This document shows, piece after piece, positions 1-59,370 of a stretch of DNA of 64,000 nt. The stretch is from assembly GCA_008632985.1 (NCBI GenBank), contig QPGO01000012.1, forward strand, positions 682,001-746,000. Reading direction: 5' to 3'. This DNA is from Psammoneis japonica (lineage: Eukaryota). Position 1 is the stretch's first letter. Every line of letters begins with the position of its first letter. The translations under genes and the position numbers were made by a program. The notes under the pieces are model-generated. The model was not told the origin of the DNA and searched no databases. It saw only the letters and a program-made list of their open reading frames with translations.

Positions 1-1150
1 GTCAAAGGTGATGGCCCCGCAGCCTCGTGGCAGGTCAGCTGAGGCAGCACGAGTGGGATGCACAACGTTGACGTCGGCAAAAGCACGACCAAAGAGCTCA
101 CCCCAGCGGAGCCACCCCAACCAGAAAACAGTGTTGGCCAGTCCGGCCTGTGCAAGTTCTCAGCACAATGCGGGGGAGGTGGCCAAATGGAAGCGCCGGG
201 TCAAATCTTCGTCCAGCCACTTGACATGTCATTCTAGGAGAGCAACTGAGGGCTTAGATTCATTGCCGAGACGAGCCCCCATGCCGGCAGCGAGACGCGC
301 TCCAGGTCCAGGTGGGACCTCGCACTGCTGAACTGTGACATCGAGAGTTTTTTGAATCGCGTCGTATGTCGTGCACGTGCATTTCTACGTGATTTTGGCG
401 AAATTTTGCATGATTTGACAGTGTGTTTGTCAGGCTGTCCATTGAACAACTTTTAACATTTTTTTCTTCTGCGCCATTCTCGAGTGTCTTAAGAATGGCG
501 CAGGGCAGGCGCATTGTCCAAAACTTCGAGTGCAAACAGGGATAGATGCACTGCAAACTTGGCCATTTTTTTTATGTCAAAGACAAACACATCCATTGGC
601 CAGAGTACGAACTGCAGAGCTTGCATGCAGAATTCTACGGGGCAAATGTCACAAAAAGTCCCACCTGGGACTGGAACCCGTCGCGAACAGTTGAGCACTC
701 AGGTCGTCGGCAGTGCGGCACGGGATGTGTGACAAACGATTCTCATCCACAACTGCCGCCCCCGGATGGGAAATCATCACATCCCATGCGAAAAACTGAG
801 AGGCGGCGCTGCGGAGTTGGCGCACCGCACCAAAAGAGACCGGCTCACCTTTCTTTCCCGGGCGGAGGCTGCATTGCTCCTGTGCCCACAAGAGAGTGAC
901 CTCCGGTCCGTGAGGTGGTCGGGTGAGGGGTGTGGGGGTGAGGATTGGAACTTGAAATGTGCGCTCAAATTTCCGAAGAGAGTTGAGTTTTTGTTGATGC
1001 TGCACGTGAGTTCCCGCGGACCATGCATGTGCCACATCCAGGATCCACATGCGTTCCAGAGCCATGAGCCGCCAGTCCTTGGAGGATGTGAGCTCATGGT
1101 CTAGGACACTGCACACCGCACACTTTTCACAGACAAAGTGAGCCCATTGT
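1..1150 (-). pseudogene. tyrosine recombinase ORF of the DIRS element (N-terminal part), interrupted by the MITE at 294-682
   Basis: Removing 294-682 plus one GCGA TSD restores the frame: ...DDLSAQLFA|AGMGARLGNESKPSVALLE*HVKWLD. Its position downstream of RT/RH fits the DIRS YR. The catalytic C-terminus lies outside the window. Confidence 0.65.
294..682. mobile_element. MITE, 389 bp, with 5'-GACGCG..CCAG terminal inverted repeats, 4-bp TSD (GCGA) and a central hairpin
   Basis: Left end gacgcgctccaggtccaggtgggac; right end gtcccacctgggactggaacccgtc. GCGA at 290-293 and 683-686. Internal inverted repeat tgcgccattct...agaatggcgca (~470-502). Related element at 57337-57731. Confidence 0.85.
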
Positions 1151-1315
1151 CAGATCTGAGGCGGTGGGGTGAGCCCCCCAGCCTGCTTGCGCCGTGTCAT
1201 GAAAGGCGGGCCGGCCCTGAAACACCGCGGATGGTGACAAACACCACATGGTGAGCATGCAGTGCCCGAGTTGAACTCAAACCCATGGACAGCAAAGGAG
1301 CATGTCACCAGTGGG

Positions 1316-2418
1316 TCACGAAGCGAGGCTCCTTGGTGGCAACCCGCGCATTGTTGAAGCCTGTTGCTCATGCCACCGAACAACTCCTGGTGAGGCAAGT
1401 GACTCCAACCTGTTGGAGGTGACAGCAGGCACAACACGCTGGTGAGGTCCAAGGCACAAGATGACGATCAGAATGGGCAGTCGCGGGGGAGCAAGGAGGG
1501 GTGCCCACGGGTCCAGTGGGAAGAGAGTCGGCAGCTCCTGAACACTGCGGGATGACCCATGCCAGAAAGCCGGGATGACACGGGGAACGAACACCAATGC
1601 CGCCGCAATGAGTGGGCGCTTTGTGCAGGCGGTCAGGAGGAAGGTGAGAAGTTGCCTGGCAACCTCCGGGGGTGGGAACCACACACAGTGAGTTTGTCTG
1701 GGACATCTCGTGCATCCCACACAGCATGCCACGGTTCCAAGGCCCAGGTGGAATGTCCCAACAAAGAAGCAACGTGCACTGCTAGGGACGGATCAGGCAT
1801 CAAGGGTTCAAAGACGGCAGCGTTGAGTCGGTCCTGGTCCTCGAGCTCGTGTGGTGCACCAGCCCATGCACCTCGGCTCAGCCCATCGGTCATTTGCCGA
1901 ATCACAACAATGCCGGGGACATGGACCACCTGCAGGCTGCAACCCAGTTCGAGCTCAATGAGACAGATCTCTTCTATGAGCTCATGTAATCCAGGAGAAG
2001 AGGAGGACCTGGACGCAGCAATCCAACAGGTGACCTGGTTGTCCGTGAAGCAGAAGATGGTGACGCCGCGCACCTCGGTCGGGGGCATGCCCCGTAGATG
2101 TTGGAGGGTGACAAGAAGCGTCTTGAGTTCTTTCCAGTTCGACGAGAAACTGCACACCACAGGACTCCACTGGCTCATCCACATGCGCAGCGGCTCATCA
2201 CGCATCCCAAGTGTTCCGCCTGCCCCGGTGCCGCTGCCATTGCCCCAAGTTGGGAGCAACGCAGCAGACCGTGTGGACCTGGCCATGCCACCTTCCCCAC
2301 ACCGGAGGTGTGAGTTCCACCACTTGAGGTCTTGAATGACACCTGAAGTGAGTCGGGCACGGGTGCAGCATGGGTCCGCACCAGTTCCCAGCCGCGGTGG
2401 TCGCACCAGGGTGTGCAA
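1316..2418 (-). pseudogene. DIRS RNase H plus downstream methyltransferase-like remnant
   Basis: 'SSNWKELKTL...FCFTDNQVTCW...LQVVHVPG...TDGLSRG' matches DIRS RNase H. 'VWFPPPEVARQLL...ALVFVPR' matches the MT-like region known from DIRS pol. Confidence 0.75.
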
Positions 2419-2419
2419 A

Positions 2420-3560
2420 TTCCGCGTGAAGGTGTGACGAGTCGAAGCGGAGTGGCGTCCGAGAGTGATTCCAGGGTGCCCGACAACACAGACAGGGCGA
2501 GTCTAGAATGTTCCCAATCAGCGCCCAAGGACAGCACATGTTGAACCATGGCAAGCGCCCGCTCACGTTTGTCGAGGGGGATTCGCAGCATCGGAATTCC
2601 CGTCGTGTCGAAAATGAAGCCGCAACACTTGGCCACTTGCGAAGGAGGATGGCACTTGAGAGGGTGGCATGGCAAACCCACGTCAACGGCCACATCAAGG
2701 AAGCAACGCAAGGCGTCACAAGCAGTTTCACAGGCAGGACCGTGAACGGCGAAGTCGTCAACAAAGACCCAAATCTCAACCCCTGGGAGTCCGTCCCGCC
2801 TCATGAAGACCAGTCCGTGTCCAAGCTTAGGGTCGCACGTTTCCTCGCAAGTCAATTCTGACCACCAGCTGTTTAAGAGGGGCTTGTCACCAAAGCGCTC
2901 TGGGGCACATTCACGGAGCAGGCGCACAAAGGCGTTTCCGCATCTTCCCCCAAGAGCTGGACAGTTCCCTCCTCCCATGGGGAGGCCAAGCCACTCCAAC
3001 AATTCTTTGCTCAGGGGGTGAGTGAGGCCCAACCATGGCCGGTCGTCTGGGTGGGTGGTGAGCTGGTGAAAAAACTTGGAAGCGTCAACGACTGCAGTGC
3101 ATCCTCCTTGATGCATTTCATCTAGGATGTGGGTGACCCTTGGTGGGAAAACCGGGTCGTTTCCAACCACTGCATTCTGTCCACCACTTTTCATGTCAGC
3201 TGTCACCCGCCACTCGCCAGGCTGACCGGGCTTTGGCACACAGAACAGAGGCGTAGTTGCCAGGACCGTAGAAGGGTCCGGCACTGCCCCCAGAGCACCA
3301 ATGTCCATGAGTTCATCCACGAACTGCACCGCAATTCGCAACTGGTCTTCATCCATGGGGGCATTGGGTTTGACCTGTGACTCGGGGGGGGGGTCAGAAA
3401 ATTCATCCTGCTTCCGTTGCGGAGGTCATCCCAGTGCTCCGGAGGGAATTCCCACCAGAGGACCTGGAGATGATGCAAATCGGGGCCCTCGTCGTCACAG
3501 TTTGTCCGGTGTCGTTCCAGGGCGTTCAATCCTTGACTGATCATGTCCTCGTGATTCTCC
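2420..3560 (-). pseudogene. DIRS reverse transcriptase, frameshifted
   Basis: 'PLFCVPKPGQPGEWRVTAD', 'VVDASKFFHQL', 'LPMGGGNCP', 'WVFVDDFAVHG' and 'KCCGFIFDT' are RT motifs. Expected Tyr positions read as H or C. Confidence 0.9.
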
Positions 3561-3849
3561 TTGGGGTGCCGTTGAACGGAACACAGGAGATTCTCAATGC
3601 GTTGCAGGTGCCACGCCCCATCCCTGGACAAATCAGGAGGGGACCAGTGGAAAGGTTTCTGAACATCTGAGTCCTCGCCGTTGTCTGTCTTTGCCTGAGG
3701 AGTCGGATCCTCTGCAATGGGTTTGTCCAGTTTGAGAGCAGGCCACCGTTCCCCAGGTGGTTCCAGCGTGAAGCTCCTTCCAACGTACTCCCAATGGAAC
3801 ACACTGGCAGTGGAGTCCGCATCAACGCGCTCCGCAGGCACACCCCACT

Positions 3850-4620
3850 CCTTGGGAATGCCCAGTCCGCGCCCGAGCTCCTCCCTGGCAAGCCGTCGCA
3901 TTTTCTTGCTGGTGCGGATCCACGCTCCCGCTCTGGGTGGCATTGGGTCTGTGCCCGCATCGCAGACGTGGGCGTTTCGGGGCACGTTACGGCCCCTCCC
4001 CCGGATGAGCCCTTCTGGCGTCAGGAGGTTGCTCACAGATCGGGGTCACATCCCGTGTTGCACCGAGTCCCAAGTCCATCTTGCGGCGAACGGTCGAAGG
4101 ATGCGCGCCACCAGAAGTCGGCTCTGGTCAAGGGCGCCACTGACTTCAGTCGCCGCAATCCATCGGAATCGGGATTTGTGGCCCAGTCGCCCCCACCGAG
4201 TTCGAGCCGCCTTGCCGGCAGGACCGTTCTCCCATGTGATGGCATGGGCTTGCCAACTTTCTAGCACCACTTTTGGCCTTGCCTGACCCGCCGCCGATGA
4301 CACCAGTTCCTCCCACCGTTCGCTCTGGGGCAACCTGCGGGGTTTCCGAATGAAACCTCGTTCCACCACCAACAGATCCACGGGGTGTCGATTGAGCAGG
4401 GAGCTTTTAACTCGGGGCCCGGTGCAGGTCACTGCATCATCGCTGGCCGGGCAAACTGGGTCCCCTTGTCGTCGAATGCATGACTTTTGTTCTAGCCGCG
4501 GCCAGGCCGCACGCACAGTTTCCGCTCCGCACTCCATTGTTCCGCAGGTGGCGAGCCAGTCTAGAGCCGGCGCAGGTCTTGGCCCCATGTGCATTTCCAT
4601 GCCGTTGACAGTCGAGTCTT
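3850..4620 (-). pseudogene. degenerate C5-cytosine DNA methyltransferase-like domain at the N-terminus of DIRS pol
   Basis: Motif-like segments in the canonical order: 'VDLLVVERG' (IV-like, no PC), 'RPKVVLESW' (VI-like), 'LGHKSRFRWIAATEVSGALDQSRLLV' (VII/VIII-like), 'RRLAREELGRGLGIPKEW' (IX-like). Recognised by eye only. Confidence 0.55.
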
Positions 4621-4995
4621 GGAGCAAATGAGGTGTGCTCTGGGGCATCCCAGGAGGCTGTGCCGCTCTCGAATTGTCCAGGATGCCGGGGATCTCCTCC
4701 TCTTGGCATCCGGTTTCCATGTTGTCGTTGTCCAGGGCAGGGAGGCGATGGTTCCATCCGTGCCCGGCTTCCAGCAAGCCCTCCTCCAATGACATTCTGC
4801 ATGACCTTCCCACCGCGACTGCAGCAGCTTGCGCACCAAACACTTTCTTGCCTGGTGTGCAAGGGCATGGCAGGGAGTGAGTGATTGGGGGCCAGCAGAG
4901 TGCACACTGCACAACACGAGGAGGAGCGGGTCATTTTTGACAATTGGTTCTCGGGCCGGACAATCCACGCCCGGTTCTTGCTCCTCGGCAGGAGC

Positions 4996-7903
4996 TCATT
5001 CCATGTTTGGCTTCGACGTCCAGATTTCCGTGATGACAGTGTCCGCATTGCCGTCCGGGTCCGCCGTCAGGCGCCGACTAAGTTCGGCGCAGGCTTGTTT
5101 GACCTTCTCCACAGTGCAGTTGGTCTTGGTCACACCCTCGAGCAATTTTCGGGCCAGCGACGCCTGCAAGTCCTTCGCGGGGCAATTTGCCCTGACCTCC
5201 CCATGGAGGTTGGTTTCATGGCAAATCGCACACCTGCAGCATGCATGCAGACAAAAGGTCACTTTGTCACGCCCTTTGTGACATTCAAAGGCTGCAACAC
5301 GTCGCCGTGATGCATCAACTCTCATCAGTGGCTGCACATTGCACTCCTCCCCATGTGTCACGCATCCATGCGGCTCTTCACTAACGTGTGCTGACACTGC
5401 ACGGTTTTGGCGGAACAGTGTGGGTACGTGCGAAGGAACACACAGAACTGCACAGAGTTTTGCGCGTTCGACAGTGATCAACGTTGCTGCAGACAACTCC
5501 CACTCAGGGTTTCGAACCCCTGGCCTCCTGCCTGATGGTTGCGATGAACCACTCCGCTGTGAATTCACAATGCAGCATGCATGCAGACAAAAGGTTATTT
5601 TGTCATGCCCTTTGTGACATTTAAAGGCTGCAACACGTCGCCGTGATACATTGGCTCTTGTTGGCAGCTGTGTGTTGCACACCGCCATGAGACGGTGGTG
5701 CTTGCGCCTCCGCTCCCAGCGCCATTGACCGCAGTTCGAAGCTCGTGCATCTGCTCGAACAGTCCGTCGCAGATCTCCTCGTGTCGGAACCGATGCTCAT
5801 GGCAGGCATCGCGAAGACACACACAGGCCGTTAGGATGTGTGACCTGAAGTTGGGAGCCAGCACTTGATTTGGGCACAACCGCTCTGCGTGGTGTTTCAC
5901 AAGGCTCTCGGCCCAGCCGTCCTTGCACTCTGCTGCCCCATCTTTGGAATGCAATGACTCCCGAGCTGTGGTCAAGAGGGACAGACAACACTCGCAGGAC
6001 TTTTCCAGGACCCTGGGCAAGAGCCCACAATGGAGACAATCCTCAATGAACCGGGGAGAGTGCCGCCGCTCATGCAGAAAAGCGCGGAACCGGTTGTTCT
6101 GGGCCGGCCAGAGCTTCTCCCAGGCCTTGGACACTTCTTTGACAACACGCAGCAAATCCCCTCGGTTCTTGACAAGCCCCAGAGTGTTTGCCTGCTTGGT
6201 CTGCCAGGTGCTGTCATGTCTGGTCCGACCCCTCTCGAGAGCACCCAAATGCGTCAGCAGAGCCGACATGAGCTCCTCCTCACTCGGAGTGTTCTCAAAG
6301 AAGTCAGCACTGTGCATGCCTGGTGGAGCCGTCACATCCACACTCTGATTCAAGAACTCTGCTTGTTCCCTTGAGTCTAGTCCCGGAGGACACAGCAGGC
6401 GCTCCACAGCTGCCACGTTGGCCGTGGCTTCTCCAAAAATCTTGCTGGAATCACCAACCGACGGATCATTGCCCCAGTGCTCCGAATGCAAACGGTGTGT
6501 CTCTGCAAGCCCGTCTCCATCAGCACACAAAGCCGCCCCCCCCAGCAGGCGTCAACCCCGGAAGAGGGGGACAAGGGCCCGTGCCCTGCAGGTGGGGTGG
6601 GTTCCGGAGGTCCCCCAGCAGGAGGAGGTGGGGAAGGGTCCCTGGCCACCACAGGAGGCACCTCGCTCCACCACCGCATGGCATCAGCCCTGGTGTTGAA
6701 GGTCCGAACGTGTGAGAACCCCCCACTGAGAGCAAGGGCCATGTCAGCATCCAACGTGCACACGTGTCGCTCGTGAGGCTCCCGTTGAAATCCGCACCAG
6801 AGTTCCCGTGGACTCGGCGACCGGTTGTGCTGCCACTCCTCCACCTCTTGCTTAGTTGGAAATGTCAAGCGGAGGGCAGCTCCCAGTCAGATCCAGTGCA
6901 CCAGGTCCTCGTGCACAGTGCAGACACGTCTGGTGCCGCTCGGTTCACTCAACCCATGCCACAGATTCGGTTGGCCTGTGGGGTGCGACTGGGTCACTGA
7001 TGGCGGCGGCGAAGAAGTGGTTGGGGCAGCAGGCATTCCATGCCCTAGACCATGAAGTGATGAGGATCCATGATTGGTGGCCCTGGCATTTGGTGGGTCG
7101 CTCCGGACCCCATCCGGGCGTGTCGTGGTTGAAGGACGTTCAGAAGTGTCCCTCGCAGCTGTCTGCGACAAATTGTCAGCCAGAGGGGTGACCGGCATCA
7201 TCTGATGCTCAGTCGTGACAGGGGGGTCATGGGACTCAGTCCCGCCAAAGGTCACTTGGTGTGGGGCCCGTTCACCGTTGGCACCACGAATCTCACTGAG
7301 CTCCCGTCGGAGGTCATCATTGAATGCCTCCATTGCCTGTCGAAGGGGCGTCGTAGCCGTGAAGGAGTCCTCGTTCATTGTGGCAAAGGAGTCTTCATCC
7401 TGTTCGGGGTCATTCCTGAGCACGTCCGCTGCGCGAGTCATTTCTTCATCCTTGATTGCAGTGCGAGCATCTCGCTCTTCCCGGGTTAATCCCATGTGAA
7501 GGCGATCCAGTCGTCCATCGACCATCTCCCGGCAGCGCCCATTGTTGGGGAATTTCTTGCAGAAACGCGGTGGAGCCCGGTGGGCGGCTTCCAACGTCTT
7601 CCTGCTGTGTCCGCGGCATGTGCAGTCGGCTCACGAGCTGCCGCACATGCAGTGCACCGTTCATCCCCTCTCCTTTCTCGTCATGTGAACGTGACAGAGG
7701 TCGGGATGGGTCAGATCAACCAGATCCGACGGGGTCACTTCCTCATCGAGGAGATTGACGCCACCCACCGAAGAGGTCTCTGAGAGCTGTTCATCCACAA
7801 TGGTTCCATTGTCATCCGTGTCGGAGGTCACCGTCTCGGGGCCATCGACTGACACTCCAGCAGACGCAGAGGAGTCAGAAGGACTCCCGTCATTGCGTGC
7901 CAT
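4996..7903 (-). pseudogene. DIRS gag-like ORF1 with RNase H1 N-terminal (hybrid-binding/viroplasmin-like) repeats and a C-terminal Cys/His knuckle; interrupted by a TRIM
   Basis: Starts MARNDGSPSD at 7903. 'LWCGFQREP...VRTFNTRADAMRWW' and 'LWHGLSEPSG...FPTKQEVEEW' resemble the hybrid-binding domain. Removing 5235-5679 restores SWRC|AICHETNLH...NCP. Confidence 0.6.
5235..5679 (-). mobile_element. TRIM (miniature LTR retrotransposon), 445 bp, with two 109-bp LTRs and a 4-bp TSD (CACC)
   Basis: LTRs at 5235-5343 and 5571-5679, each TG...CA. PPT ggggaggag (minus strand, 5344-5352) abuts the 3' LTR. CACC at 5231-5234 and 5680-5683. Removal restores the gag frame. Confidence 0.9.
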
Positions 7904-10016
7904 GAAAATGCGACATCAGCCTGATGGAATGAGTGGTCCTACAAATGGACCCACCCCCCTGCAAAGAAAAATTTTTGCCTGTCCAGGCGTTGATTCGTTG
8001 ATGCTCCAAATTGTGAGATCTTGAACGTGGACTTGGAGGGACTCCACTTTTTGAGTTTCCCCTCTGATTCCTGGCATGGATCCCACTGGAGCCTTTGCAT
8101 TCCCATGATCATTTGCATTTGTGACCATTCGCATTAGATTCTGTTGCGGTGAAAGCTTGGTCCCCATTTTTCTGCTCAATGCCACGTTCGTCATCATCGG
8201 GGCGATCCGTCTTCAATTTCTTCGTCTGTCCGAGAACCCGTCAATCAGGGCAAGTGATGAGATTCTTTTGAGACAGTTGGAGTTGGAGGGAGGACGGATG
8301 ATGATTCGGGCGTCATCGGAACCGACCGGCGCACAAGCAGACAAGTGCACGTACAGCAACAATTTCAGCGGATCCAAGGGGGGTCATCCCCGCGTTCATC
8401 CTAAAATTTTGGTGGCGTTTGAACAAGAACATTCATTGGACATTGTTTTTGAACATAAAAATTGTTCTTTTTGTCACATCCGATCACCAATCGCGCACGG
8501 CAAACGAGAACATCAAGCACCACGATCGAAGCACAACGATGATGACAATCGTCAACATTTCTCAAAAACGCAGCATCACGCGCGCAAACTTTTCATGTGT
8601 GTGAGATCTTTGATGCACAAGGAACATAAAACAAGTGAGAGTTGGTGCACGGACTACCTCCGTTACAGACTCATGGCTTGCTGTTTTTCACCACGGTGAA
8701 GCACGGTGAAATTCAGGAAAAATCATGTGAAACACCAGCCATTCGGCTGAATTCGAGCTAAAAAAAGCAGCGATTGACCACCCTTGACATCCGGCCGAAA
8801 ACACAACCATCACTTTCTCAATGACTTTGGATGCTGTTGACAGCTTTGTGGCACTCTTCTTTTTGTGTTGCAGCTGCATCTTTTTTTTTAAGGCAATGGC
8901 TTCGTGTTGGCTGGCAGCGCCCTCCCATTCCAGAGCGTGGTGACTGGTGGAGTGCAAAGAAGTGTGTTTTTTTTTTTCATGTCTCTCATCTGTCGAGACA
9001 GGGGAGTGTGTGCTGTGAGATGTGTGGCAGGTGAGCCACTGGTGCCAATGATGGGGAGAGCTCAACTCATGGGTTGGGGGTGCTGGCAACAAGCTCCGTT
9101 TTCCGCCACCTCTGACAAAGGGCCCCTCTTGTCAAGTGGCAAAGAAACCCATCATCTTGCATCTCTCCCCATCTTGCTCTCAAAAGAGAAAGAGAGAGAG
9201 AGATCATTTGTTCACTCAAGAGAGAGAAAAACAAAAAGACAGCTCACAATCAGGGCACCAGAGACAGGGAGCAGATGCAGAGAGTGCCCTGGAGCTGGTG
9301 GAGCACGATGCAAGAACTCAAAAACCTTGAACCCAGCTGCTTTGACCACACATCTGCCCCCCCCCCCCCCCAACTTAGATCTGTTCAATGCAACAGCTCC
9401 TGCCACATTGAAAATTCATGGCAGCTGGCCACTGACAAAGCTGCTGCCACAAAAGTCTTGCAGCTCCTCCTCACTTTGGCCAGTGCTGCAGTGCTTTGCT
9501 GTTGCCACACAACTTGAACGAACACACCCAAGTTGCAGCTGTGCTGTGCTCAGCACCTTTGAAAATGACACACCTTGCAAAGAAGCCCCAAAACACATCT
9601 TTTTGAAAAAGGAGAAAATGACCTTATAAAGAAAAAGCAGCACCCCGCACAAAACATGCAAGAGTGTCGGCGTGTTTTCTCTGTGCAGTGCATTTTCTCA
9701 GCCCACTCACATCTGCTCACAAAAGAGATCTGCTGTGCAGCACATGTGTTGCAGTTTCTGGAAACTCATGGTGTGGTTGTGCATCATGCAAATGCTGCTG
9801 CTGCAACAAACATGTGGGTTGAGCTTGCCAGAGTGTTTGAGGTGTGCAAGAGCAAGGAAGCAATGCTGTGTTTTCTTTCAAGGATGTTCATTCCACCTGT
9901 GAAAGTTTTGTGTGTGTCAATTATTTGATGAAGAAAGAAACCAACAAAAAGAAACAAGAACAGAAAGAAAAATGGCGAAACTGCAAAAGGAATTGCTGGC
10001 GCATGAGAACAACCGA

Positions 10017-10190
10017 TCTTGGACAATTCAAAGCCCAACATTCCAAAGGAAACGTTGAATGATCTGCACAGCACTGTGCAGAATCATGGGGACACTGGAG
10101 TGGCAGCCAGCGCACAAGAACAATCAATCTTGGATGATTCAAAGACCAACATTCCAAAGGAAATGTTGAATGATCTGCATGGCACTGTGC
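10017..10190 (+). repeat. ~111-bp-period direct repeat (2 copies)
   Basis: atcttggacaattcaaagcccaacattccaaaggaaacgttgaatgatctgcacagcactgtgca vs atcttggatgattcaaagaccaacattccaaaggaaatgttgaatgatctgcatggcactgtgca. Differences are mostly CA/TG/CG swaps. Confidence 0.8.
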
Positions 10191-11136
10191 ACAAGGATGA
10201 GGATGAGACTGGATGTTGCCAGATGTCCCATGTTGCCTGATGTGTCAAGGTAGACTGTGGATCTTTGGGGTGCTCAAAGTTCAACCAGCTCATTTCTGAC
10301 TTGCCAAATGAGTTTGACATGAAAAGATGCAAAGGTTTTGTTCTCATCAAGAGCATGAGGCAAGAGGAAAGCTCACAAAAACAGCACCATGAATGACAAT
10401 GAAGCAAACTTGACTCTCCAGTTAGCGAGTTGATGCAGAAGGTCACACCATCTTGCTCTTGGCTGGGAGTCTTGGTTGTGATCTTGGCCACTGCTTCCAT
10501 TGGGATTGTCCTGCTAATGGCATCACCATTCCTTGTCATTTTCCTCAGGTTCCTCGCCATTTTCTTCCTTTTTTCGTCATTTGACATGCTCCAAAAGTTG
10601 TGCTGAATGCTCCCCGAATAAAGTTTTGGCACTGTCTCCGTCAATTGTCAAAAAGGCATCATGTTCAACATGTTTGGTGCTCTCATGATCACAAGTGCCC
10701 TGTTCCTTTTTGAATGGCACCCACCTGGGCTCAGCTGTTTGTGTTCGTGTCGCAGGGAACTGGGTCGTTGACAGACATCCAAGATGGGGAGCACACTCCC
10801 TTGTCTTGGACAGACTGGCACAGACAGCATTGAGAGATCCGATGATCTCTCTTTGCTCACTTTCTTTCTCATCTAGTGCATGATTGTCATCTGTCCTAGA
10901 CATCAGTTAGATCGTCCCGATGCCACTGGTCCGCAAGGTTGTGAGCAGCAGTGTGCTGTTCATCTTCCTCAATGCAACTGCATTGCAACATTCACCGTGT
11001 GGTTTGGCAATGTTTCCCCGTTGAAATTGTCGTCTTTGTCACAGCCATTTTTCTCACTTGATTTGTGATCATCACGACCACCGTAGACCACATGCCAGTG
11101 CTCCACACAGGATTTTGAATTTTTTCCTGCGCAACC

Positions 11137-14100
11137 ATGGTGCCGACTGACCAAACTTCTGTCGATTTGACCAAGATCAAGTCCATGCAAGTCAAATTCA
11201 GACCGCAAAATTGCTCACCTGATGCCCATTCTTACCTGAATGAACTTTGTTCCAACGCGACACCTGCTCCTGAAGATCTTCTGGACAGATTTGCTCCTCC
11301 AAGCCTCAAGCCCGACACAATCGCAACCATCCGTTGTGAGATTGTTCATGATCTAGTCATCCTCAGGCCACCTTGACTGAGGACCTCAAACGGATTGGAC
11401 CACTCATTGATGAAGCTCCTCTCTTTGTGGCTGCCCCTCAAGATGCTCCGATCCATCTGAACCACACCAATCTTCAGAAGGCCATGATCAAAGCAATCTC
11501 AGATGATCAAGACACCACAACAACATGTGTTGGGACTGTCAGTCTCTTCTTTCATCCTGGTTTTGAGAATTGTCTGTGTTGGGATGACATCTCTGATGCT
11601 CCACACCCACCACCAGTGTCTCCCCCAAGTTCTGTGTCTCAATCGACCGCCACTGCAGGCCTGACTCCTGAAGATTTTGCTGAGGCCTCAGCTGCTCATT
11701 CACCTGGTCCACAACAGTTTGAGCAAGCTGTGAGCAAAGCATTGAAGACCTCTGCGGCTTCTGTGCCACCTCCTGCACCTTCTGCCAAGACCACTGCTGC
11801 TGCGGTTTCTTCCTCAACAACCACTGGTGCCATGTGCACCTTCAATCTGAAAGGACTTCCAAAGGATGCACCAGCTCGCTGTCAATGCAAGGAAGCCGGG
11901 AGAGTGGTGTCAGGGAAGTCACTGGTGCCTTGCAAGTTGGGAAATCTTTGCTGTGAAGACGGTGCTGAATGCCTCATTCTTGCTGATGGTTCACTCTTTG
12001 TCCATCGTGTTGATTGGGTTGCCAAGTCATTTCTTTGTGATGCTTTGACATGTGATGACATTTCACCTTAAGGAATCCAAGCATGGCACACTGCAGCAAC
12101 CCAACAAGCCTCGGCCTGTGGCACACACATGCATCCCCCATGGTGGTTCATCAAGGATGGTGGAAACTGGGGTTTCACGTGTGGCAACAACCCAACTGAT
12201 GACCTGCCACTCCGCATGTGTGTGCCTCTTGACCACATGAAGCTTGCACTTTTTCAGCACATCCAGAAGGTTGGGGTTTTCCCAGCTGATTCCAAGCACA
12301 CAGACATTGTTCGCCAATGCCATGGAGATGGATGTGCTGCCCTCAAGATGACCCCATTTGACATTCTCCCAATCTGGACTAAGCAACCATGTGAGCTGAT
12401 CAAGAGCCACCCACACCAAAGCAATCTCACAATCCTCAGTTGCCATGCCCTGTTCAGGGATTTCCTCCAGCTGCGGGCCATCATTTCCAACGTTGATGCC
12501 TCTCTTGATGATCCTGGTGAGCCAGACATCTTTCTCAGCAACACTTGATGTGGAGAGCACCTGCATCGAAAGACAGTCAATGCCAGGGAAGACAAGAGCA
12601 AGCAACACAAATTCACTCAGCAGAAGATTGTTGAGACGATTGCCACGATCCTCAAGGAACCAGACAGTCCTGCTCTTCGTCTCAAGGATCCCCCCAAACA
12701 CCCTGCACAATGCCTCCATAACCAGAACCCGGCCAACCCTCCTCTTGCAGCTCCTCTTTGAGCCCTTGACTTGCTGCCCAAGGATGAGGTGCCAGACCCA
12801 CCTCCAATTGTTCCGGAAACTCCAATGGAAACTGCTCCCCCTCCTGTGGAAGAACCTGCGGAAACTGTGGAGTGCTTTGTAAATGAGCTTGCCACTGTGG
12901 AAATTCCTCCAGATGACAAGGCACAAGCACTGCACGGCATTTATGAGGCTTGCATCCACAGGATCAAGTCGTCACCCGCTGTTGCACAGACTCAACCATG
13001 TGTTGTCTGTGGTGACAGCCACTCATTCCATGAGTGCCCGGTCTTGAACAATGCCGAGTGTCTGCGTGCTCACCTCATCCAATTCTGCCAATTCCTTCAA
13101 TGTGACCAACGTGCCCGAGATGCACTCAAGGATGGCAAACCTAAAATGGATTTTTCTCAGGGCCATTGACTTGTTACATTCAGATGAACAATGCTGCCCA
13201 TCTCTTCCCAATCCAAAACTGCATGCAAGCGGGGTAGCTGCGAAAGAGGGTCTCACAGACTTGTTGCCTCCTGCTGAAATGCCTCTTTCACATGTCTCAT
13301 TTGCCGACCTTCTGTCAACCTCAACAAAGACTGGAGCTCCGGATCTCAAGACTGTTGCAGATGATGACCCTGACACCACTCATCAGGGGAGGGAAACACC
13401 TTCTCATGAACCCTCCATCAAAGCGAATGATGTCCCGCCAACCAGTGATCATGATCAAGATTTTGAGTGCATCGACATGGACACCAACCAACACCTGTCA
13501 CCTTTGAGTGCAGTGCACATCACCCCGATTTTTTCTCCTCCCAAAACACCTGTGGTTTTTGAATCTTTGACTGCTCCTGTCATCCCCATCAACCATGCAC
13601 CAAATTCTACCCCGGTCCGCTCTCTCAAAGTTGAGACTGAACGTCTCCTTTGGCATCAACGCCTTGGACATCCCAGCGATCACTGTTTGCACCATGCTCA
13701 CAAGCATGTCAAAGGGGTTCCTGAGTTCCGCCATGCCAACCCAGTTCTTGATGTTTGCCCCACGTGCATCCAGGCACAACAAGTCAAGACACCTGCCGGA
13801 CCCAACTCAACTCACAAGGCGACTCAACGCATCAAGGCCTCACTGTGGACTTTGCTTTTGCCGGTCAAGCGTCCAAGAATGAAGACCGCACGTCTGATTG
13901 TCTTGGCTGTGATGGTGAAACATGCTGGATCACCATCTATGATCATAAAACATGCATGCTTCATGGTGTTGCACGAGTCTCTGAGGCTAGTCCCCTCAAG
14001 TGGTTTTGCCAATTCCTGGATCGACACTCTCCAAATTGTCGTGACAAACATGCATTTATGGACCAGGGAGGGGAATTGTACAAGAACCCCAAAGTTTTTG

Positions 14101-17100
14101 ACCTCTTTCAACGAGAATTCCAGCATGACATTTGTCCATCTGGCACTGGCACCTCCAATCAATGTGGCCCTGTTGAACACTCACATTTGACTGTCGAAAA
14201 CGCAATTCGTGCAATTTTAATTGGTGCTGACCTCCCAATCAGATTCTGGCCCTGTGCTTTTCACCATTGCCTCCGCGTTGAGAATGCTGCTCCTGCGAAA
14301 GACCAAGATGCATCTCCTGTCACCCTTGCCACTGGAAAGGTCAAAGATTTTACTGCCCTGAAGACTTTTGGATGTCGAGCATGGGCCAAACGCTCTACAA
14401 AACGCTCTGCCACCTTTCGTTCCAACTCCAAGAAAGGTGCACTCCTTGGATGTCTCCCAAACACCCTGAAGAATGTTCTTTGGTGGGATCCAGAGACTGA
14501 CAAAGTCAAGACAGTCAAACATGTGCGACGTGACGAGGGCATGAATGACCTGTCTCTAGACCAACTTCCCCCGAATGCCACCCAGTTGCAATGCATGGAA
14601 AATGGCCAACCTTTTCCGGCTGAAACACAGGACACTGCTGTTCCAACATTTGCTTCTTCATCAAATCCTTTTGCCAAGACTGTCACTTGCACCATGAAAC
14701 GCCCTCCCCCATGGACCCTGCCTGTGGTTTTGTTTTCTCCCAGTGTCCTCTCTCATGGACCGTGTGTGTGTCTTGGAAATCAAGCAACGCAGTCCCGCGG
14801 CCTCCCCATTCTCTTCTCTCCATGCTGCTTGGAACAAGCTCATGGGTGCACATGTTGTCTCCATCAACAAGCATGAAGTCTTTATGCCACAAGATGCTGA
14901 AAAAGCACTTCTGCAGGTCTGCCATGATGAGGTCCCCATCTTTGAGATTGCTTTTGCGCCTGAACAATGTTTGGACCCTCGTGCTCTTAACAAGGCTTTT
15001 GAGGAAGTGGAGCCATTTGACCCTGATTCAATGGAGGACAATGCCCATGCACCGGAACTTGCTTTGGAGGATGTGCGATCCATCACAGCTGTTCTCTGTC
15101 CTGATGATGATTTCTCTGATGACGCTGTGCCGATGGATGTCTTCTGTGCTCATCTCCATGCTGTCAGTTCTCGTGCTGTCACTCCGGAAGAAGCTGCTCT
15201 TGATTGCGTCACCCGTGCCAAGCTCCACAAACTTGAAACATGGCCGGAATGGGAAGAAGGAGAGAAGTGCCAATTGGATCAATTTTGTGCACTTGGCACG
15301 CATGGTCCTCCACAACCACGTCCTCCTGGAGTGAATGTGTGCGTCTGCATTGGGGCCATGTGGCAAAACCAGATGGGCAGTGTTGCTCCAGACAATGTGG
15401 AGATGGACCCAAGTTGGCCATGCCAGCATTGCATGAACTGACCTCCACGCACTCTTCATGTGTGGAACGCTCGATCAAAAAGATGTTTTTTGCTCTCAGT
15501 GCTGCCATGTCTTATCGAACATGTGGTGGTGATGCCCGAGATGCATGTGCCCATTCTCCTGGTCCTTCACAATCAGTGTTTTTTGCCACTGATGATGCCT
15601 GTGCTGCATGGTGCGAAAGTCACTTTGGCAAGAAGGTGCCCCGCCACTGTGTCCTCCCCCTCAAGCATGCTCTCCAAGGCCATCCCAAGGCTGGTGTTCT
15701 GTGGGAGAAGCACATCAATTTGATCCCAGCTGGTGCAAAACTCCTCTTCCGCAACACTGCTCATGACAAGTGCATCTGCTTTGGTGAATGTGATGGTGTC
15801 AAGGTTCTGTCACTCCATCAAGTTGATGATTTTGCACTTCCTTGTCCTTCTGAGGTGGTTGCAAAGGAGATCTGTGATCATGTTGGAAAGGCTCTCCAGA
15901 TGGAGAATGAGGGTGCTCCCCCGTTCAAGCATCTGGGCCCGGCTGCTGAGTTCAATGGCGTTGGAGTCATTCAGAATGATGATTCGATCACAATCAACAT
16001 TGCCAGCCATCTTGACCACGCTTTCAAGACCCATGGATGGGACACTCCCGCTGCAAATAAAACCAAGACTGATTTCAAGGCTGTGCCTGTGCCGGTTGAT
16101 TGCACCCCTGAGCTGTGTGCCGCTGAAGGTCCCAAGGAGGGTGCCCCTGAATGTTGTGCCCTCTCTGACTCTCATGGCTTCTCCTGCCGCTCTGTCTTGG
16201 GTGAATTGGTCTTTGCTTGTTCGTGCTGTTGCTTGGATGTTGGCTGTCCCATTGTTGCTTTGTCCAAGTTCTCCAAGACTCCGGCTGACGTCCACTGTGA
16301 TTCCCTCAAACGTGTGGCTGAGGCTCGGTCTACAGGTGAACCGCGCCGGATCGGATCGCCGGATCGGATCGCGTCAGAATTCCGTTAGTCGACAGGTGGA
16401 ACCGGATCGGATCGCGGATCGGATTCGACATTTTGATGAGTCGCAAAACGACGTAAGTTTCAAGATTCCAAATTCTCAAGAACAACAAAGCACTGAAATA
16501 GCGAACAACAGCCAGAGAGAGTGTGGCCATGATGCTTCACATCTTGTCATAACGAGACGATATGACGACAGAACTATGCTGTTATTACTGCTTTACATAC
16601 TTACTTGACCGCATCATTGAGCATCATTGTCACTCAGTGTTTGCAGCACGCTAAGGAAGAAAAAGCTATCACTTTTGCAATTCAGAAACTGACGCTATGT
16701 TTTCGTATTGAAATTTCGAATTACATAATAAATACTTGTTATTTTGCTTATTCAATGTTTCTCCAACAAATCTTTACGGCATTATCGGTTTGACAAGCTA
16801 TTCTATTGCCATACGACCTTTTTCATCTCCATTTCAAGCATGGGAAGAGTAAGGCTGTAATGCTAAGGAAGTTCTGTGCCCTTATGGCTGAATGTTATGC
16901 CGCCCTGTATCATAATCGTGTGATGTTGCGCCATTGTCGTGATGACGGCACGGAATCTTCCAAATTCGATCCGACATCCGATCCGAGATGGCGGATCAGT
17001 CCCACGAAGGCCACGGATCGACTTTTTGACTCGATGGACTAACATTTTAATGGGTTATGAAGGAGTCGATCCGGCGATCCGATCCGGCTCGGTTCACCTG

Positions 17101-17670
17101 TAGACCGAGCCTGAGTGTCTGCGACATGCCAAACATTGGGGTTTGACATGTGAGAAGACTGAGCGTGATCCGGGCCTGCCTCCCCGTGATTTTGAGTGGC
17201 TTGAAGACGATCCATCCCTTCCTGAGTTCCCCCGTGCTGATGATCCTTTTGGATGCAGCACATGCCAATGAACTGTGGCGTCGCTGATCCACTGCTGGAT
17301 GTGCACATGTCCTTGCTGGTGCTACAATTGATTGTCGTTGCCACACACAGACCATCACAGCTGCCAGCTCCACCAAGGCTGAATTTCTCGCGGCTGTCAC
17401 TGGCGCCAAGGCAGACTTTGCACCTCCAAATGGTCCTCGAAGAGCTGGGTTTTCTTCAACGTGATCTTTCAACGTGATCTCACTCCCTTGCACATTGATG
17501 ATTCCTCCGCCATCCAGATGATCAACAACAAGGTGCCTGCAGAGTGCTTCCGCCACATTGACATTCAACATTTTGCAATCCAAGACTGGCGCGACGCGGG
17601 GAAATTGTCACAAGACATGTCCCGGGCGTCATTGACCCTGCTGATGAGCTGACCAAGGCTGTGGGTTGAG
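11137..17670 (+). pseudogene. Copia gag-pol polyprotein, frameshifted; protease region not recognised and possibly deleted
   Basis: ORF pieces 11137-13169 (gag), 13600-14876 (pre-integrase/integrase), 15240-16321 (RT) and 17112-17670 (RNase H). Nearly free of Tyr (DKCICFG, SCRSVLGEL, FWPCAFHH). Confidence 0.9.
16322..17111. mobile_element. PIF/Harbinger-like non-autonomous element (MITE), 790 bp, ~45-bp TIRs, 3-bp TSD (TGA)
   Basis: TIR ggctcggtctacaggtgaaccg(c/a)gccggatcggatcgccggatcg at both ends with one mismatch. TGA at 16319-16321 and 17112-17114. Subterminal ggatc repeats. Removal restores Copia KRVAE|CLRHAKHWGL. Confidence 0.9.
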
Positions 17671-17995
17671 TGCTTCATTCCCGCTGGCCCGTCATTTGAT
17701 GGGACACTGCCATTGATTGCCGTTGTGTTTTGTGTGTCTCTTTGTTTTTGCTGTTCTGGCCCTCATTTTTTTCTCGGATTGTCTCCTTTCTTTCTTGATG
17801 AGCTTTTGCATTGCTCATCAGGGGAGGGTGACAGACATCCAAGATGGGGAGCACACTCCCTTGTCTTGGACAGACTGGCATGGACAGCATTGAGAGATCT
17901 GATGATCTCTCTTTTCTCACTTTCTTTCTCATCTGGCACACGATTGTCATCTGTCCCAGACATCAGTTAGATTGTCCCGATGCTGCCAGTCAGCA

Positions 17996-20585
17996 AATCG
18001 CAACCCGAGCAACTTCTTCCCTTTGCTTCCACTTCACGGCCTTGGTTTTGGTCTCTTTTTTCTGCGTGTCTTGGATTTGTTGGCTCTCTTTGGCCTCCTC
18101 TTTGGCCTCCTTCTTGACCATTCCAAACAACTCTGTTTCGATCTTTGACCACTCAACTCGCTGACTTGAATTCATGACAGAAGCAGCCAGGGCATTTGCG
18201 CCCAACTGACGTGTTTTGTGGTGAAAAAGATTGGGGAGAATGGTGTGGAGAGCCCCTGTCTGGTTGATTTTGCACTTGAATTTTCCTTGGACGACAGCCA
18301 GACGCTTTCGGAACAACATTGTTCTGAGGAAGAACAACATGTCCGGACCAATGGCTGTGTCAGGGAAGCAAAACGGTGGCACCGTGCCTTCGAACCGAGC
18401 CTTCATTGACTTTCTGAGCCAACCTGGGGTTCCATCAACATCTTCCAAACAATCACATGCAAGAACTCCACAAGACGATGCCCTTGGGACAAAAAAGTTG
18501 CCACAGTCGCCGATGTCATTGTGTGGCTGTTCTTTCAACACCTTTAAAAAGTTTTGTTGAATTGCGGGAAGCATGAAATGCTCAAAGCCACTTTTTAAGT
18601 GAGCTGTTCCTTGTGCCATTGCCATTTCTGTCTTGAGCAATGTCTGCATGTCAAAAAAGTTGATGCACGCCTGCACCATGAGAGGTTCATCAATCTTGCA
18701 ATGGACGGTTGTCTCACCGGTGTTCTCATCGCTGACTGCCATCAAAACCGATGCAACCCCAGCCCGGATCATCTTGGCGGTTTTGTCACGCATCACTGTT
18801 GACCATGCAGACAAAGCACATGCAAAAGCTGCGTTTTTCACTCGACATGACACCATGTGCTGGGTGTCAAACTCAGCTTTTCGAGAATGCAGATTTTGCA
18901 CCATCGTGCATGCAGAAGCCCCATCTGAGGTCCAGGAGAGTCTGCGCTCCCTGTCGGCTCTTTCTTGCCTGGCGGCATTTTTGATGTGTCAGTCAATGGC
19001 TTCGATGATCGGGGCTTCTGCAGACTCAATCTTTCCAGGGGGCTTTTCATGGTTTTTCTTGCCTTTCTGCTGCAGAAATGTCTCCACAAAGGTGGCAACC
19101 CACCCAGGCCGACTGCGCAACCATGTTGCAACGTGCTTGACCAAGCAGTTCCCAATCTTTTCCAGATTCAAGAATTTGTCAAGATGGGGCGCAACCTTTC
19201 CAACATCCAATGGGTCAAGTTTGAAGAAGACAAGAGGGCATGGTCGTGGCTTCATTCCCAAGGAAGCTGCCTCTGACAACAATGCATCAACAGAGAGCCC
19301 CGTGCTGCCAAACACTGGACATCTCAAAAAGCTCTCTGTGTGGGCTGGGGTTGCAAAACCATGTGCAAATGCCTTGTGGGCTGATGTTTCATGATTGCCA
19401 TCATCAGACAGGAAGAAATGTGGCAGCTCCTCCTTGAGAGCTTGCGCTTTGTCAATGAAGCATGCCACATGGCCATTTGATTGGGGGACGTCATTTGGCA
19501 ACCCTTTCTTGAACCACTCATTCGACAAAATCTGGAAAATGTCTACCCCGAGAAGCTCTTCTGGGTGCATCGGAAAGAGCAGCCACTGACGGCAGCTCAT
19601 CTTGTCTTTGTCAAGTTTCTTTTGAAGGCAACAAAACACAGTTCTCCATGCGGCAGTCAACATTTCCAAGTGGCGGGTCACAACGTCACAATTCGATGTG
19701 GATGTCTCAATGCATTCTGCATTGTTTGTGGTGCTGCCAGTGCCGTCTTTTTGTTTTGCTGGAAGACTGACAAGGTTTTTGTGTCCATTGATGGTTGGCT
19801 TGTTGGCTTGCAGTCGAACGCGATCTGGCAAGGACCTCGCATCCTTCGATCCGGGATTCATCAAGACATCCACCACAAAGTGTAAAATCCATTGTTTTCT
19901 GAAAGACACTTGAACATTCTTCTTGTCTTGCCCACCCCCGACGTTCCAAAAACTGAGGTTGGCCTCTTCGGAGTGCTCGATTCAATGTGATTGTAGACTC
20001 CCGACTGTTTGTCAATGTTGTCCAGGCCGCAAAGAAGAAGCGATGGCTGCGCCTTCCCCGGAATGCAGGGAATCTTTGATTCTTTCTTGAACAAACAGTG
20101 CTGGAACAAGGCATCATTTGGAGGACAAAAATTTTGAAGGCTTGGAACATGCCCCTTCCAAAATTTATCCAGTGGTTTCTCACATGCCAACACAGCACTC
20201 TCGGGTGATGGTGGTGATGGGACAGGGACGTTGGTGGGAGGAAAAGCCCAGTTAAAGAGAATGTTGCAGACAGCAGGGCAAAAAATTTTGTGGCACTTCT
20301 GCAGTTCAGCTTGGAAGGCTTGTTTGTCCCCAGCGGGCATGATGTTCTTCAGACTCTCTTTGGTTCTGACTCGCATTTAACAAGCTCGGCAAGAGCCACT
20401 GTCACATTCTCGTGATTTTGCGACTTCTCAAGGCGAGTTGCCAAAATTTTGTACAAGTCCATCCAATTGGTCTCTTCCCACCCCTCTCCCACCTTTTCCG
20501 AGACTTTTGCCTGGATGTCATCATCGCTCGTGGTTCCCTCCACAGCACTGTTCATAACGAGTTGTTGGTTTGTGTCGGCGATCAT
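17996..20585 (-). pseudogene. degenerate Crinkler/RHS-type P-loop NTPase + restriction-endonuclease-fold gene, probably continuing at 10768-~10100 beyond the Copia insertion
   Basis: Walker A 'VFGTSGVGKTRRMF', Walker B-like 'ACFIDKAQ', 'LRSRPGWVATF', and C-terminal 'FCFPDTAIGPDMLFFL...LAVVQGKF' (PD-(D/E)xK-like). Several frameshifts and Tyr->Cys/His changes. Confidence 0.6.
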
Positions 20586-32232: not shown

Positions 32233-32249
32233 AAGAATGAAAACGGTTT

Positions 32250-59342: not shown

Positions 59343-59370
59343 CTCTCTCTCTCTCTCTCTCTCTCTCTCT
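59343..59370 (+). repeat. (CT)14 microsatellite
   Basis: Read directly from the sequence. Confidence 0.95.

Follow-up and report, generated by a model that had tools for sequence, protein, structure and literature searches.

RIP, known from ascomycetes, is a dinucleotide-specific transition hypermutation of repeats that acts on either strand and converts CpA to TpA, thereby enriching TA. Gene conversion and cDNA-mediated recombination among the copies of LTR retrotransposons are familiar from studies of yeast Ty and plant LTR elements, and the standard model of LTR synthesis holds that one template gives both U3 copies. So far, one 2026 preprint on a chlorarachniophyte, Bigelowiella natans, has reported a mutator that targets foreign or repeated DNA and turns TpA into CpA or TpG; it described TpA hypermutation of integrated viral DNA and measured new mutations (Mettrop et al., bioRxiv 10.64898/2026.01.13.699255). 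According to the accessible text of this preprint, the A:T>G:C changes are confined to TpA and give TpG or CpA depending on the strand, RT domains are enriched among the TpA-poor genes, and RIP is named as a comparison (bioRxiv 10.64898/2026.01.13.699255). The word 'diatom' does not occur in that text, and search listings of the literature on diatoms returned no description of a mutator that rewrites TpA.

TRIMs are miniature LTR elements with many dispersed copies. As described in the accessible part of a recent paper, they include gypsy-dependent animal families with 4-bp duplications, SMARTs of 292 bp, and the Helenus and TRIMp3 elements, which carry a tRNA-like sequence in the LTR, the animal Helenus elements making 4-bp duplications (Kojima 2024, PMC10886601). 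The accessible text of the same paper does not contain the word 'diatom'.

We analyzed a window of 64,000 nucleotides from the diatom Psammoneis japonica, which shows the same TA signature as the chlorarachniophyte, and much deeper. In the transposon parts of the window the observed/expected ratio of TA was 0.04-0.15 and that of CA and TG was 1.3-1.9, whereas the gene-like parts, including a helicase gene, had a TA ratio of about 0.4-0.6 (0.42-0.61) and a CG ratio near 1. The cut-off used for Bigelowiella, as given in the accessible text of the preprint, is 0.43. The diatom locus shares with the Bigelowiella type changes that fall almost only at TpA and give TpG or CpA, and a preference for repeat DNA that spares host genes; it differs in that the host is a diatom, the targets are retrotransposons and the evidence is compositional and comparative only. 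As in RIP, a transition hypermutation is aimed at repeated or foreign DNA, but here TA is erased and CpA and TpG are enriched, which is the opposite direction.

At the center of the analysis is a non-coding element of 445 bp (5235-5679), in which two 109-bp LTRs flank an interior of 227 bp. The features at and around it are as follows.

2178-3425, minus strand: host reverse transcriptase ORF, TA-erased (RVT_1, E 5.2e-08)
4999-6551, minus strand: host ORF interrupted by the element, upstream of the reverse transcriptase, 'gag' by position only
5231-5234, no strand: left target site duplication (TSD) copy CACC, identical to 5680-5683
5235-5343, minus strand: left 109-bp LTR (the 3' LTR if the element is on the minus strand), minor family type, TA-free
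5316-5338, no strand: 13 clustered differences of the left LTR, made up of six CA/TG swaps and position 84
5344-5352, minus strand: polypurine tract, nine minus-strand purines abutting the LTR
5344-5570, minus strand: non-coding internal region, 227 bp, with no Rfam or tRNA match
5508-5559, minus strand: weak tRNA-like piece, with a T-arm/box-B-like motif (5508-5518) and a box-A-like motif (5549-5559)
5558-5569, no strand: perfect 12-bp palindrome, one base off the 5' LTR, at the expected primer-binding site
5571-5679, minus strand: right 109-bp LTR (the 5' LTR on the minus strand), majority family type, three TA kept
5652-5674, no strand: the matching 13 clustered differences of the right LTR, majority haplotype
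5680-5683, no strand: right TSD copy CACC, an exact match to the left flank

A repeat alignment confirmed the twin 109-bp direct repeats (5235-5343 and 5571-5679) that a sequence-only reading of this DNA had proposed, and the 4-bp TSD it had claimed is an exact CACC on either side of LTR ends of the form TG..CA (TGCAG..TTGCA). The right end is fixed at 5679/5680 because other copies of the family run into differing flanks there. The polypurine tract at 5344-5352 is on the minus strand and sets the orientation of the element to minus. The element thus agrees with TRIMs in size (two direct repeats of about 100-250 bp and a short non-coding interior in less than 1 kb; here 109 and 227 bp), in its short TG..CA LTRs and short TSD, in the purine tract by the 3' LTR and in its many dispersed copies. 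The earlier description of it as very small was overstated, since 445 bp is ordinary for a TRIM when compared with the 292-bp SMARTs noted above. A tRNA-complementary primer site, as TRIMs carry next to the 5' LTR, was not found by eye (no TGG-type site was seen, and the window has no tRNA genes for comparison), and the palindrome stands in its place. The palindrome sequence occurs nowhere else in the window.

The miniature size, the 4-bp duplication and the tRNA-like piece recall Helenus. However, the tRNA-like motif is weak and lies in the interior (5508-5559), not in the LTR, so that the defining feature of Helenus is missing. Its two parts resemble the box-A and box-B consensus motifs; neither ARAGORN nor Rfam calls the piece, and this putative likeness is a lead only. 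ARAGORN found 0 tRNA genes in the interior, and a tRNA, ribozyme or retrozyme was rejected as its identity after Rfam searches gave 0 matches (E<=1 over 4000-7500; E<=10 over 5330-5585). The predicted RNA fold of the interior was not above that of shuffled sequences (z 0.13). No further copy turned up when the whole element, its LTRs and its interior were searched against the window by BLAST, and no autonomous partner sharing the LTR ends or the palindrome was found there.

The element is inserted in a host retroelement that extends past the start of the window. The host reverse transcriptase, for which 84 homologues were found, contains no Tyr in 416 amino acids, compared with 3.1% in 47 homologues, and none of four conserved Tyr columns is kept (they now read H, W, W and C). 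The low TA ratio of the transposon parts and this loss of Tyr together show, at the level of sequence comparison, that the direction of change is away from TA. With the element and one CACC cut out, two ORFs of the minus strand become a single frame of 368 amino acids. This is consistent with an insertion, but it is weaker than it looks, because the loss of TA leaves few stop codons and long ORFs are common. The sequence-only reading had placed the element in a DIRS gag. An RVT_1 domain lies downstream on the same strand, and the interrupted ORF had no Pfam family match. DIRS-like elements carry a tyrosine recombinase instead of a DDE integrase and protease, and here such a recombinase is only hinted at; the host retroelement is probably DIRS-like. 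In 27 further minus-strand ORFs Pfam gave nothing above the cut-off, and matches to TniB, C1_1 and similar families in the host ORFs were below the cut-off and were rejected. The feature neighbours of the ORF at 652-1149 included ALOG, Phage_int_SAM_1 and QRICH1-like clusters (0.92-0.94), which are leads only.

We then compared the two LTRs. Of the 109 positions, 18 are unlike between the two, every one of them by a transition, in line with the sequence-only reading, which had seen transitions only; in the six other repeat pairs of the window transitions make up only 101 of 154 differences. The three direct TA-versus-CA/TG sites of that reading (repeat positions 26, 52 and 78) and its six CA/TG swaps (82-83, 89-90, 92-93, 95-96, 101-102 and 103-104, in 23 bp) were all recovered. 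Further differences not described before lie at position 28 (C/T, off TA), position 36 (CG in the left LTR, TG in the right) and position 84 (A/G). Fifteen of the 18 differences sit in TA/CA/TG steps, and the left LTR has 0 TA where 6.7 are expected. When 18 transitions were placed at random, at least six CA/TG swaps arose in 3 of 200,000 trials started from the left LTR and in 0 of 200,000 started from the right LTR; chance is therefore rejected as the source of the six swaps. An inversion of the cluster was also rejected, the left cluster not being the reverse complement of its right-LTR twin. RNA editing before insertion was rejected as a source of the LTR differences on the standard model of LTR synthesis, and it is a possible source of differences between lineages.

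To see how these states are distributed among other copies, we used contigs of one public run, possibly the same sample as the source of the window's assembly, aligned to the element in short pieces (89-226 nt among those listed). The family is very abundant: 1243 contig pieces match the element, many with differing flanks, and the summed depth over the element is 3,500-290,000, against 44.5-49.6 on the single-copy flanks. Summed contig depth is not equal to copy number, and we put the size of the family at roughly a thousand copies or above. Two further public runs gave 1 and 0 matching pieces, which is no evidence of absence, and metagenome contigs scanned for exact matches to a motif from the LTR and to one from the interior yielded none for either.

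The variants among these copies bear on the ancestral state of the swapped sites. Transitions account for 37 of the 40 listed variant positions (five further variant rows fall outside the listing), and TA/CA/TG steps hold 32 of these 37. Contigs matched to the right LTR have TA as their sole state at repeat positions 52-53, while at 26-27 and 77-78 TA, CA and TG are all present in the family. Where a third state occurs at a CA/TG site, it is TA more often than CG. At CA sites the numbers of contigs with C>T and with A>G were 38/33, 20/20, 55/42, 19/9 and 38/30; at 5323/5324, 25 contigs had C>T and none was listed with A>G; at the TG sites G>A exceeded T>C at three of four; and at cluster site 89-90, 25 contigs (23% of depth) carry TA. 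As judged from these contigs, TA is a better candidate than CG for the ancestral state of the swapped sites. The outcome named beforehand as refuting the earlier reading (a consensus of CG at all swapped sites and of CA/TG at the three direct sites) was thus not observed, and transitions at TA with either CA or TG as the end state, as that reading had it, agree with the differences.

The timing proposed in that reading, namely LTRs identical at insertion and a process acting after integration, was not supported. The states of the left LTR occur in the family at depths of 7,800-11,800, about 160-265 times flank depth (10,420 at 5316, 10,638 at 5323, 8,237 at 5329, 7,829 at 5330 and 10,308 at 5337), their linkage being seen over the length of short contigs only. 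The positions 5260, 5262, 5270 and 5286, which include two off-TA differences, show no variant among the listed rows, and the off-TA changes of the left LTR (positions 28 and 36) are common to the left-type contigs of the family. Within the left cluster, family variants occur at 5316/17, 5323, 5329/30 and 5337/38, together with mosaic loose ends. The right LTR reaches a depth of about 290,000, and in its cluster (5652-5674), where the bins have depths of 97,465 and 27,109, not one of the 40 listed variants falls, while TA sites on the same contigs (5597, 5647 and 5648) vary by 27-55%. The majority source was therefore already free of TA in the cluster. Because the left states reach such depths and the right cluster has no listed variant at about 27,000-97,000, both LTR versions are widespread family types, and a process acting on TA cannot convert a majority cluster without TA to the left version. 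Taken as a whole, the earlier reading is partly supported.

The transition between the two types falls near 5380. The stretch 5344-5380 carries minority states (A at 5364, where 95% of the family has G, and C at 5379, where 92% has T), whereas from 5382 onward every listed site is in the majority or a near-half family state, and the five remaining TA of the element all lie within 5382-5647. From the depth of the left states and the uniformity of the right cluster, we conclude that the differences were probably inherited from two source lineages rather than made in place after insertion. That the present copy is a mosaic of two TRIM lineages, which diverged earlier by TA->CA/TG changes and were later combined, has in our estimate about an even chance of being correct.

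In such a mosaic, the very abundant non-coding TRIM-type element would have inserted on the minus strand inside the ORF upstream of the TA-erased host reverse transcriptase. Its part from 5382 to 5679 (most of the interior and the right LTR) would be of the majority type, with every TA of that type kept, and its part from 5235 to 5380 (the left LTR and 37 bp) would be of a minor TA-free type that may occur a few hundred times. The lineages would have diverged earlier, when their source copies took TA->CA or TA->TG changes, that is, A:T to G:C at TpA with the strand hit setting whether CA or TG results; the chemistry may be a deamination of adenine at TpA, which was the proposal for Bigelowiella, or an oxidation of thymine. 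The two types were probably joined in one of two ways: either the left 146 bp were replaced after insertion by gene conversion, ectopic or cDNA-mediated, or a plus-strand transfer took place between two templates during reverse transcription. Conversion among LTR copies would give an element with an intact TSD and two LTR haplotypes; here we infer this step from the single switch point near 5380, and it has left no direct trace. Mosaic variants were also seen among the contigs of other family copies; repeated mutation of single sites could account for them just as recombination could.

That the differences were made in place we consider unlikely. Two identical LTRs with TA at about nine sites would have been modified after integration, mostly by plus-strand T>C changes in the left LTR and mostly by A>G changes in the last 28 bp of the right LTR. 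The predominance of transitions in TA/CA/TG steps would fit such a history, as would the TA still found in the family at site 89-90 and the surroundings of the element: the flanking host DNA has 5 and 2 TA per kb, compared with about 40 expected, and the TA-free outer parts of the element (to 5380 and from 5652) adjoin it. A strand table of 7:2 versus 1:5 (Fisher p = 0.04) also points this way, but the test is inflated, as sites changed alike in both LTRs are invisible and the sites were ascertained; the 5:1 split of the swapped sites does not reach significance by itself (a binomial count by hand gives about 0.2). Strand coordination is only suggestive, and we do not rely on it. Against changes in place it also counts that independent mutation at six two-way sites is unlikely to have produced both common haplotypes, that contigs of the right LTR show no unmutated TA at the cluster sites, although TA is common at 26-27, 52-53 and 77-78, and that the off-TA changes of the left LTR are shared with the left-type contigs.

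A variant of this idea, which we hold to be rather improbable, is that TA was erased after insertion in short, sharply bounded and mostly single-strand tracts that entered the copy from both flanks. In that case one event would have struck the left 146 bp and another, on the opposite strand, the right 28 bp, with the center untouched, much as if RIP leaked out of a paired repeat, and the common family haplotypes would be repeated outcomes of the same process, not inherited ones.

It is doubtful that assembly or polishing produced a false mosaic, with reads of other copies overwriting part of the element. A family of this size would make such an error easier, flank-reaching single-copy contigs confirm only 5135-5260 and 5651-5779, and no contig ties the left cluster (5316-5338) to the locus. 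However, the first of these contigs covers the left flank and the first left-type state (C at 5260) with 0 differences, the second ties the right cluster to its flank, also with 0 differences, and there is one clean switch point near 5380 rather than a scatter of states.

Decay of methylated CpG, in which a swapped CG became TG in one LTR and CA in the other and TA arose by C>T, is very improbable. In its favor, the repeat parts of the window are poor in CpG (observed/expected 0.17-0.8), position 36 is CG versus TG, this copy has CA at 5364 in place of the CG of 95% of the family, and one family variant has CG at positions 79-80. Against it, both LTRs retain the three CpGs at positions 66-73, and the cluster would have to have lost 13 of 14 CpGs, compared with 2 of 23 in the rest of the element (Fisher p = 4e-07). 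In the family, moreover, variation at CpG sites is only 1.7-2.5%, compared with 20-60% at TA-type sites, and TA is strongly depleted in the window, not enriched, with the Tyr loss of the reverse transcriptase being a change away from TA. CpG decay seems, on the family variants, to have contributed little to the divergence of the lineages.

For a mosaic of two inherited types, the consequences concern dating as well as the mutator. The present copy is a weak clock for the TA-erasing process, because both of its LTR versions are common elsewhere in the genome. In abundant families the LTRs of a pair cannot safely be assumed to have been identical at insertion, so that dating by LTR divergence, or 'mutator clocks', can mislead. 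The family itself has non-coding copies on the order of a thousand, and in each of them every TA site shows whether it is TA, CA or TG; for that reason it is a good substrate for the rate, strand choice and tract length of the process. The majority LTR end is already TA-free, and so it seems that the loss of TA need not stop a non-coding parasite from amplifying further. Among the 40 listed variant rows none falls in the polypurine tract (5344-5352), and family variants at 5559 and 5568 occupy mirror positions of the 12-bp palindrome.

The two 109-nt direct repeats that form the long terminal repeats (LTRs) of the TRIM-type element at 5235-5679 (left LTR, 5235-5343; right LTR, 5571-5679) were realigned and differed at 18 positions. 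All 18 differences are transitions, and a reading of the sequence alone had likewise claimed only transitions. Among the other six repeat pairs in the window, transitions made up only 101 of 154 differences. Repeat positions 1-81 held five differences, C/T at 26, 28, 36 and 52 and G/A at 78. The other thirteen formed a cluster at repeat positions 82-104 (left, 5316-5338; right, 5652-5674), which comprised six swaps, in which one LTR has CA and the other TG, and an A/G difference at position 84. The sequence-only reading was right about its three TA sites and about the six swapped ones; its list left positions 28, 36 and 84 unspelled, of which 28 is a non-TA difference and 36 is CG versus TG. 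In simulations that placed 18 random transitions, at least six swaps occurred in 3 of 200,000 trials started from the left LTR and in 0 of 200,000 started from the right, so chance does not account for the swap pattern.

The whole window is depleted of TA (observed/expected 0.25) and of CG (0.61), with CA at 1.51 and TG at 1.48. In 2-kb steps TA was 0.04-0.15 over the retroelement parts; the gene-like parts had TA at 0.42-0.61 and CG near 1, and include the following ORFs:

32253-34625, minus strand, DDX41-like DEAD-box helicase
40835-41851, plus strand, weak kinase fragment
62081-63181, plus strand, ORF with a Laminin_G_3 domain

The 2-kb stretches with these three ORFs had TA at 0.41-0.54, the region 28001-34000 overall had 0.42-0.51, and CG was close to 1 in the surroundings of the helicase and kinase-fragment ORFs. 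The best named relatives of the helicase were all from diatoms (best identity 79%), including Nitzschia, Fistulifera, Chaetoceros, Fragilariopsis and Thalassiosira, which identifies the window as diatom DNA.

The retroelement that hosts the insertion carries an RVT_1 ORF (E 5.2e-08) downstream of the element on the same strand. This reverse transcriptase has no tyrosine in 416 residues, versus 3.1% in 47 homologues; at four columns where the homologues conserve tyrosine it has H, W, W and C, and several conserved Leu, Ile and Val columns are now P, S, T or A. In contrast, proline is kept at 19 of 19 conserved columns and aspartate at 9 of 9. The loss of tyrosine together with the depletion of TA therefore indicates a process that runs away from TA, the direction opposite to that of RIP, and the signature differs from both RIP and CpG decay. 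The same kind of mutational signature has been described in integrated viral DNA of Bigelowiella natans, where new A>G and T>C mutations occur only at TpA and an adenosine deaminase is suggested (bioRxiv 10.64898/2026.01.13.699255). Diatoms are absent from the accessible text of that preprint, and the accessible parts of the literature that our searches returned held no description of such a TpA process in diatoms. None of the other 27 minus-strand ORFs matched an integrase, protease or recombinase family above the cut-off. The feature neighbours of the ORF at 652-1149, which include ALOG, Phage_int_SAM_1 and QRICH1-like clusters (0.92-0.94), are a lead towards a DIRS-type recombinase.

No second copy of the element was found in the window, and none was found in metagenome contigs in two scans. 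Related copies were collected as contigs of one public run containing the locus, aligned on 5135-5779 at a likeness of at least 80%; the run is possibly from the same sample as the assembly. Flank depth was 44.5 and 49.6, and the summed depth over the element, which is not a copy number, was about 3,500-290,000 from 1243 contig pieces. At 5679/5680 the contigs diverge into many different flanks. The element belongs to a very abundant dispersed family. Transitions accounted for 37 of the 40 listed variant positions, and 32 of these 37 lie in steps that are TA, CA or TG in this copy; the three listed CpG sites showed only 1.7-2.5% variation.

We then asked whether the swapped sites descended from TA or from CG. 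At a CA site a single C>T change yields TA, a single A>G change yields CG and the two combined yield TG; the number of C>T contigs minus that of A>G contigs is therefore the number of TA copies minus that of CG copies. This excess was +5, 0, +13, +10 and +8 at five CA sites and at least about +20 at the CA site 5323/5324 (25 contigs versus none listed); the matching excess at four TG sites was +2, -3, +5 and +4. At repeat positions 52-53, TA was the sole state in the right-copy contigs, and at 26-27 and 77-78 the family has TA, TG and CA. If the swapped cluster sites had instead arisen from CG by CpG decay, 13 of 14 CpGs would have been lost in the cluster versus 2 of 23 elsewhere in the element (p = 4e-07); three CpGs at repeat positions 66-73 are unbroken in both LTRs. 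TA is probably the ancestor, and CG distinctly the less likely one; the preference is held at this level because contigs carry no haplotypes. The outcome that the sequence-only reading had named against itself, CG at every reciprocal site with CA/TG at the three direct sites, was therefore not found.

That reading had also taken the LTRs to be identical at insertion and the process to have acted on this copy after integration, which is unsupported, since the left-copy states are common in the family and the right cluster is the majority type. The left-copy states at 5316-5338 agreed with a family depth of 7,800-11,800, so they are not private to the locus. Sites 5260, 5262, 5270 and 5286, which include both non-TA left-copy changes, had no listed variants at an all-contig depth of about 11,000-24,500. 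The right cluster (5652-5674) likewise had no listed variants, at bin depths of 97,465 and 27,109, and TA sites on its contigs showed 27-55% variation. The majority source was therefore already without TA in the cluster. The right LTR resembles that source in unmutated form, and a TA-specific process cannot convert the majority cluster to the left-copy version.

The minority states of this copy (5364, 5379) end at 5380, and its five remaining TA dinucleotides all lie within 5382-5647. The simplest account of this copy would be a mosaic, in which 5235-5380 derived from a minor TA-free lineage and 5382-5679 from the majority lineage, the two perhaps joined by gene conversion (with another copy or its cDNA) or by plus-strand two-template transfer. 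A polishing artefact in the middle of the element is possible, because single-copy contigs tie only 5135-5260 and 5651-5779 to the flanks. The variants of loose-end and joint contigs were mosaics of CA and TG states, and TA at site 89-90 was retained in 23% of the left-type depth. Across the family, the swapped sites do have the appearance of former TA sites that became CA in some lineages and TG in others. A change made in place in this copy after integration is unsupported, as is the timing drawn from it. The apparent strand bias (7:2 versus 1:5, p = 0.04) presumes the in-place model and comes from ascertained sites. As a twin-LTR clock the element is of less interest; its chief value is in the mutational process behind it and in a family on which that process can be measured.

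The LTRs start with TG and end with CA, and an exact CACC on either flank bears out the claimed 4-bp target site duplication. Because nine minus-strand purines (5344-5352) adjoin the left LTR and no plus-strand purine run precedes the right LTR, we placed the element on the minus strand, with 5571-5679 as the putative 5' LTR and 5235-5343 as the putative 3' LTR. One base off the 5' LTR, at the position expected of a tRNA primer site, is a perfect 12-bp palindrome (5558-5569) with no other exact match in the window. Its family variants fall at mirror positions (5559 G>A, 5.7%; 5568 C>T, 18%). An ancestral version of the palindrome may have had TA at each end, both halves having since changed with self-complementarity kept. 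On the minus strand the interior also has a T-arm/box-B-like and a box-A-like motif, separated by 30 nt, at 5508-5559; ARAGORN and Rfam made no call there, and the motifs may be what is left of a tRNA-derived promoter. The RNA fold of the interior was unremarkable. Apart from lacking a recognisable tRNA primer site, the element has the structure that defines a TRIM, and its length of 445 bp is not unusually short, contrary to its description as very small. Identity with Helenus, which in the accessible text has a tRNA-like motif in the LTR (PMC10886601), was rejected, since the motif here lies in the interior. Excision of the element and one CACC leaves a single 368-aa frame in place of two minus-strand ORFs, which is consistent with insertion as weak evidence, because TA loss strips most stop codons.

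Other repeats in the window showed related patterns. Direct repeats of 175 nt (10762-10936 and 17822-17996; 90% alike, 7,060 bp apart) enclose ORFs with gag_pre-integrase and retroviral SH3-like domains, a copia-type element, and differ by four CA/TG swaps, three CG/TG, two TA-type differences and five transversions. Two 94-nt units at 9999-10203 (111 bp apart, 85% alike) have three differences that are CA/TG swaps; such swaps are therefore general among the repeats here. The deepest joint loss was at 24001-28000 and 58001-60000 (TA 0.05-0.07, CG 0.17-0.28, CA/TG 1.6-1.9), so CpG decay is strong in some repeat blocks, yet weak in the TRIM family. In the plus-strand copia element (12001-16000) TG was 1.85-1.89 and CA 1.44-1.51 on the plus strand, and in the minus-strand reverse transcriptase element (1-8000) CA exceeded TG on the plus strand. 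TG thus exceeds CA on the coding strand in both, which may reflect a strand preference or codon make-up. An 87-nt repeat pair (34030-34116 and 45388-45474) gives a small polarity check within the window: TA and CG survive in the member from the less depleted region at sites that are CA/TG in its partner.
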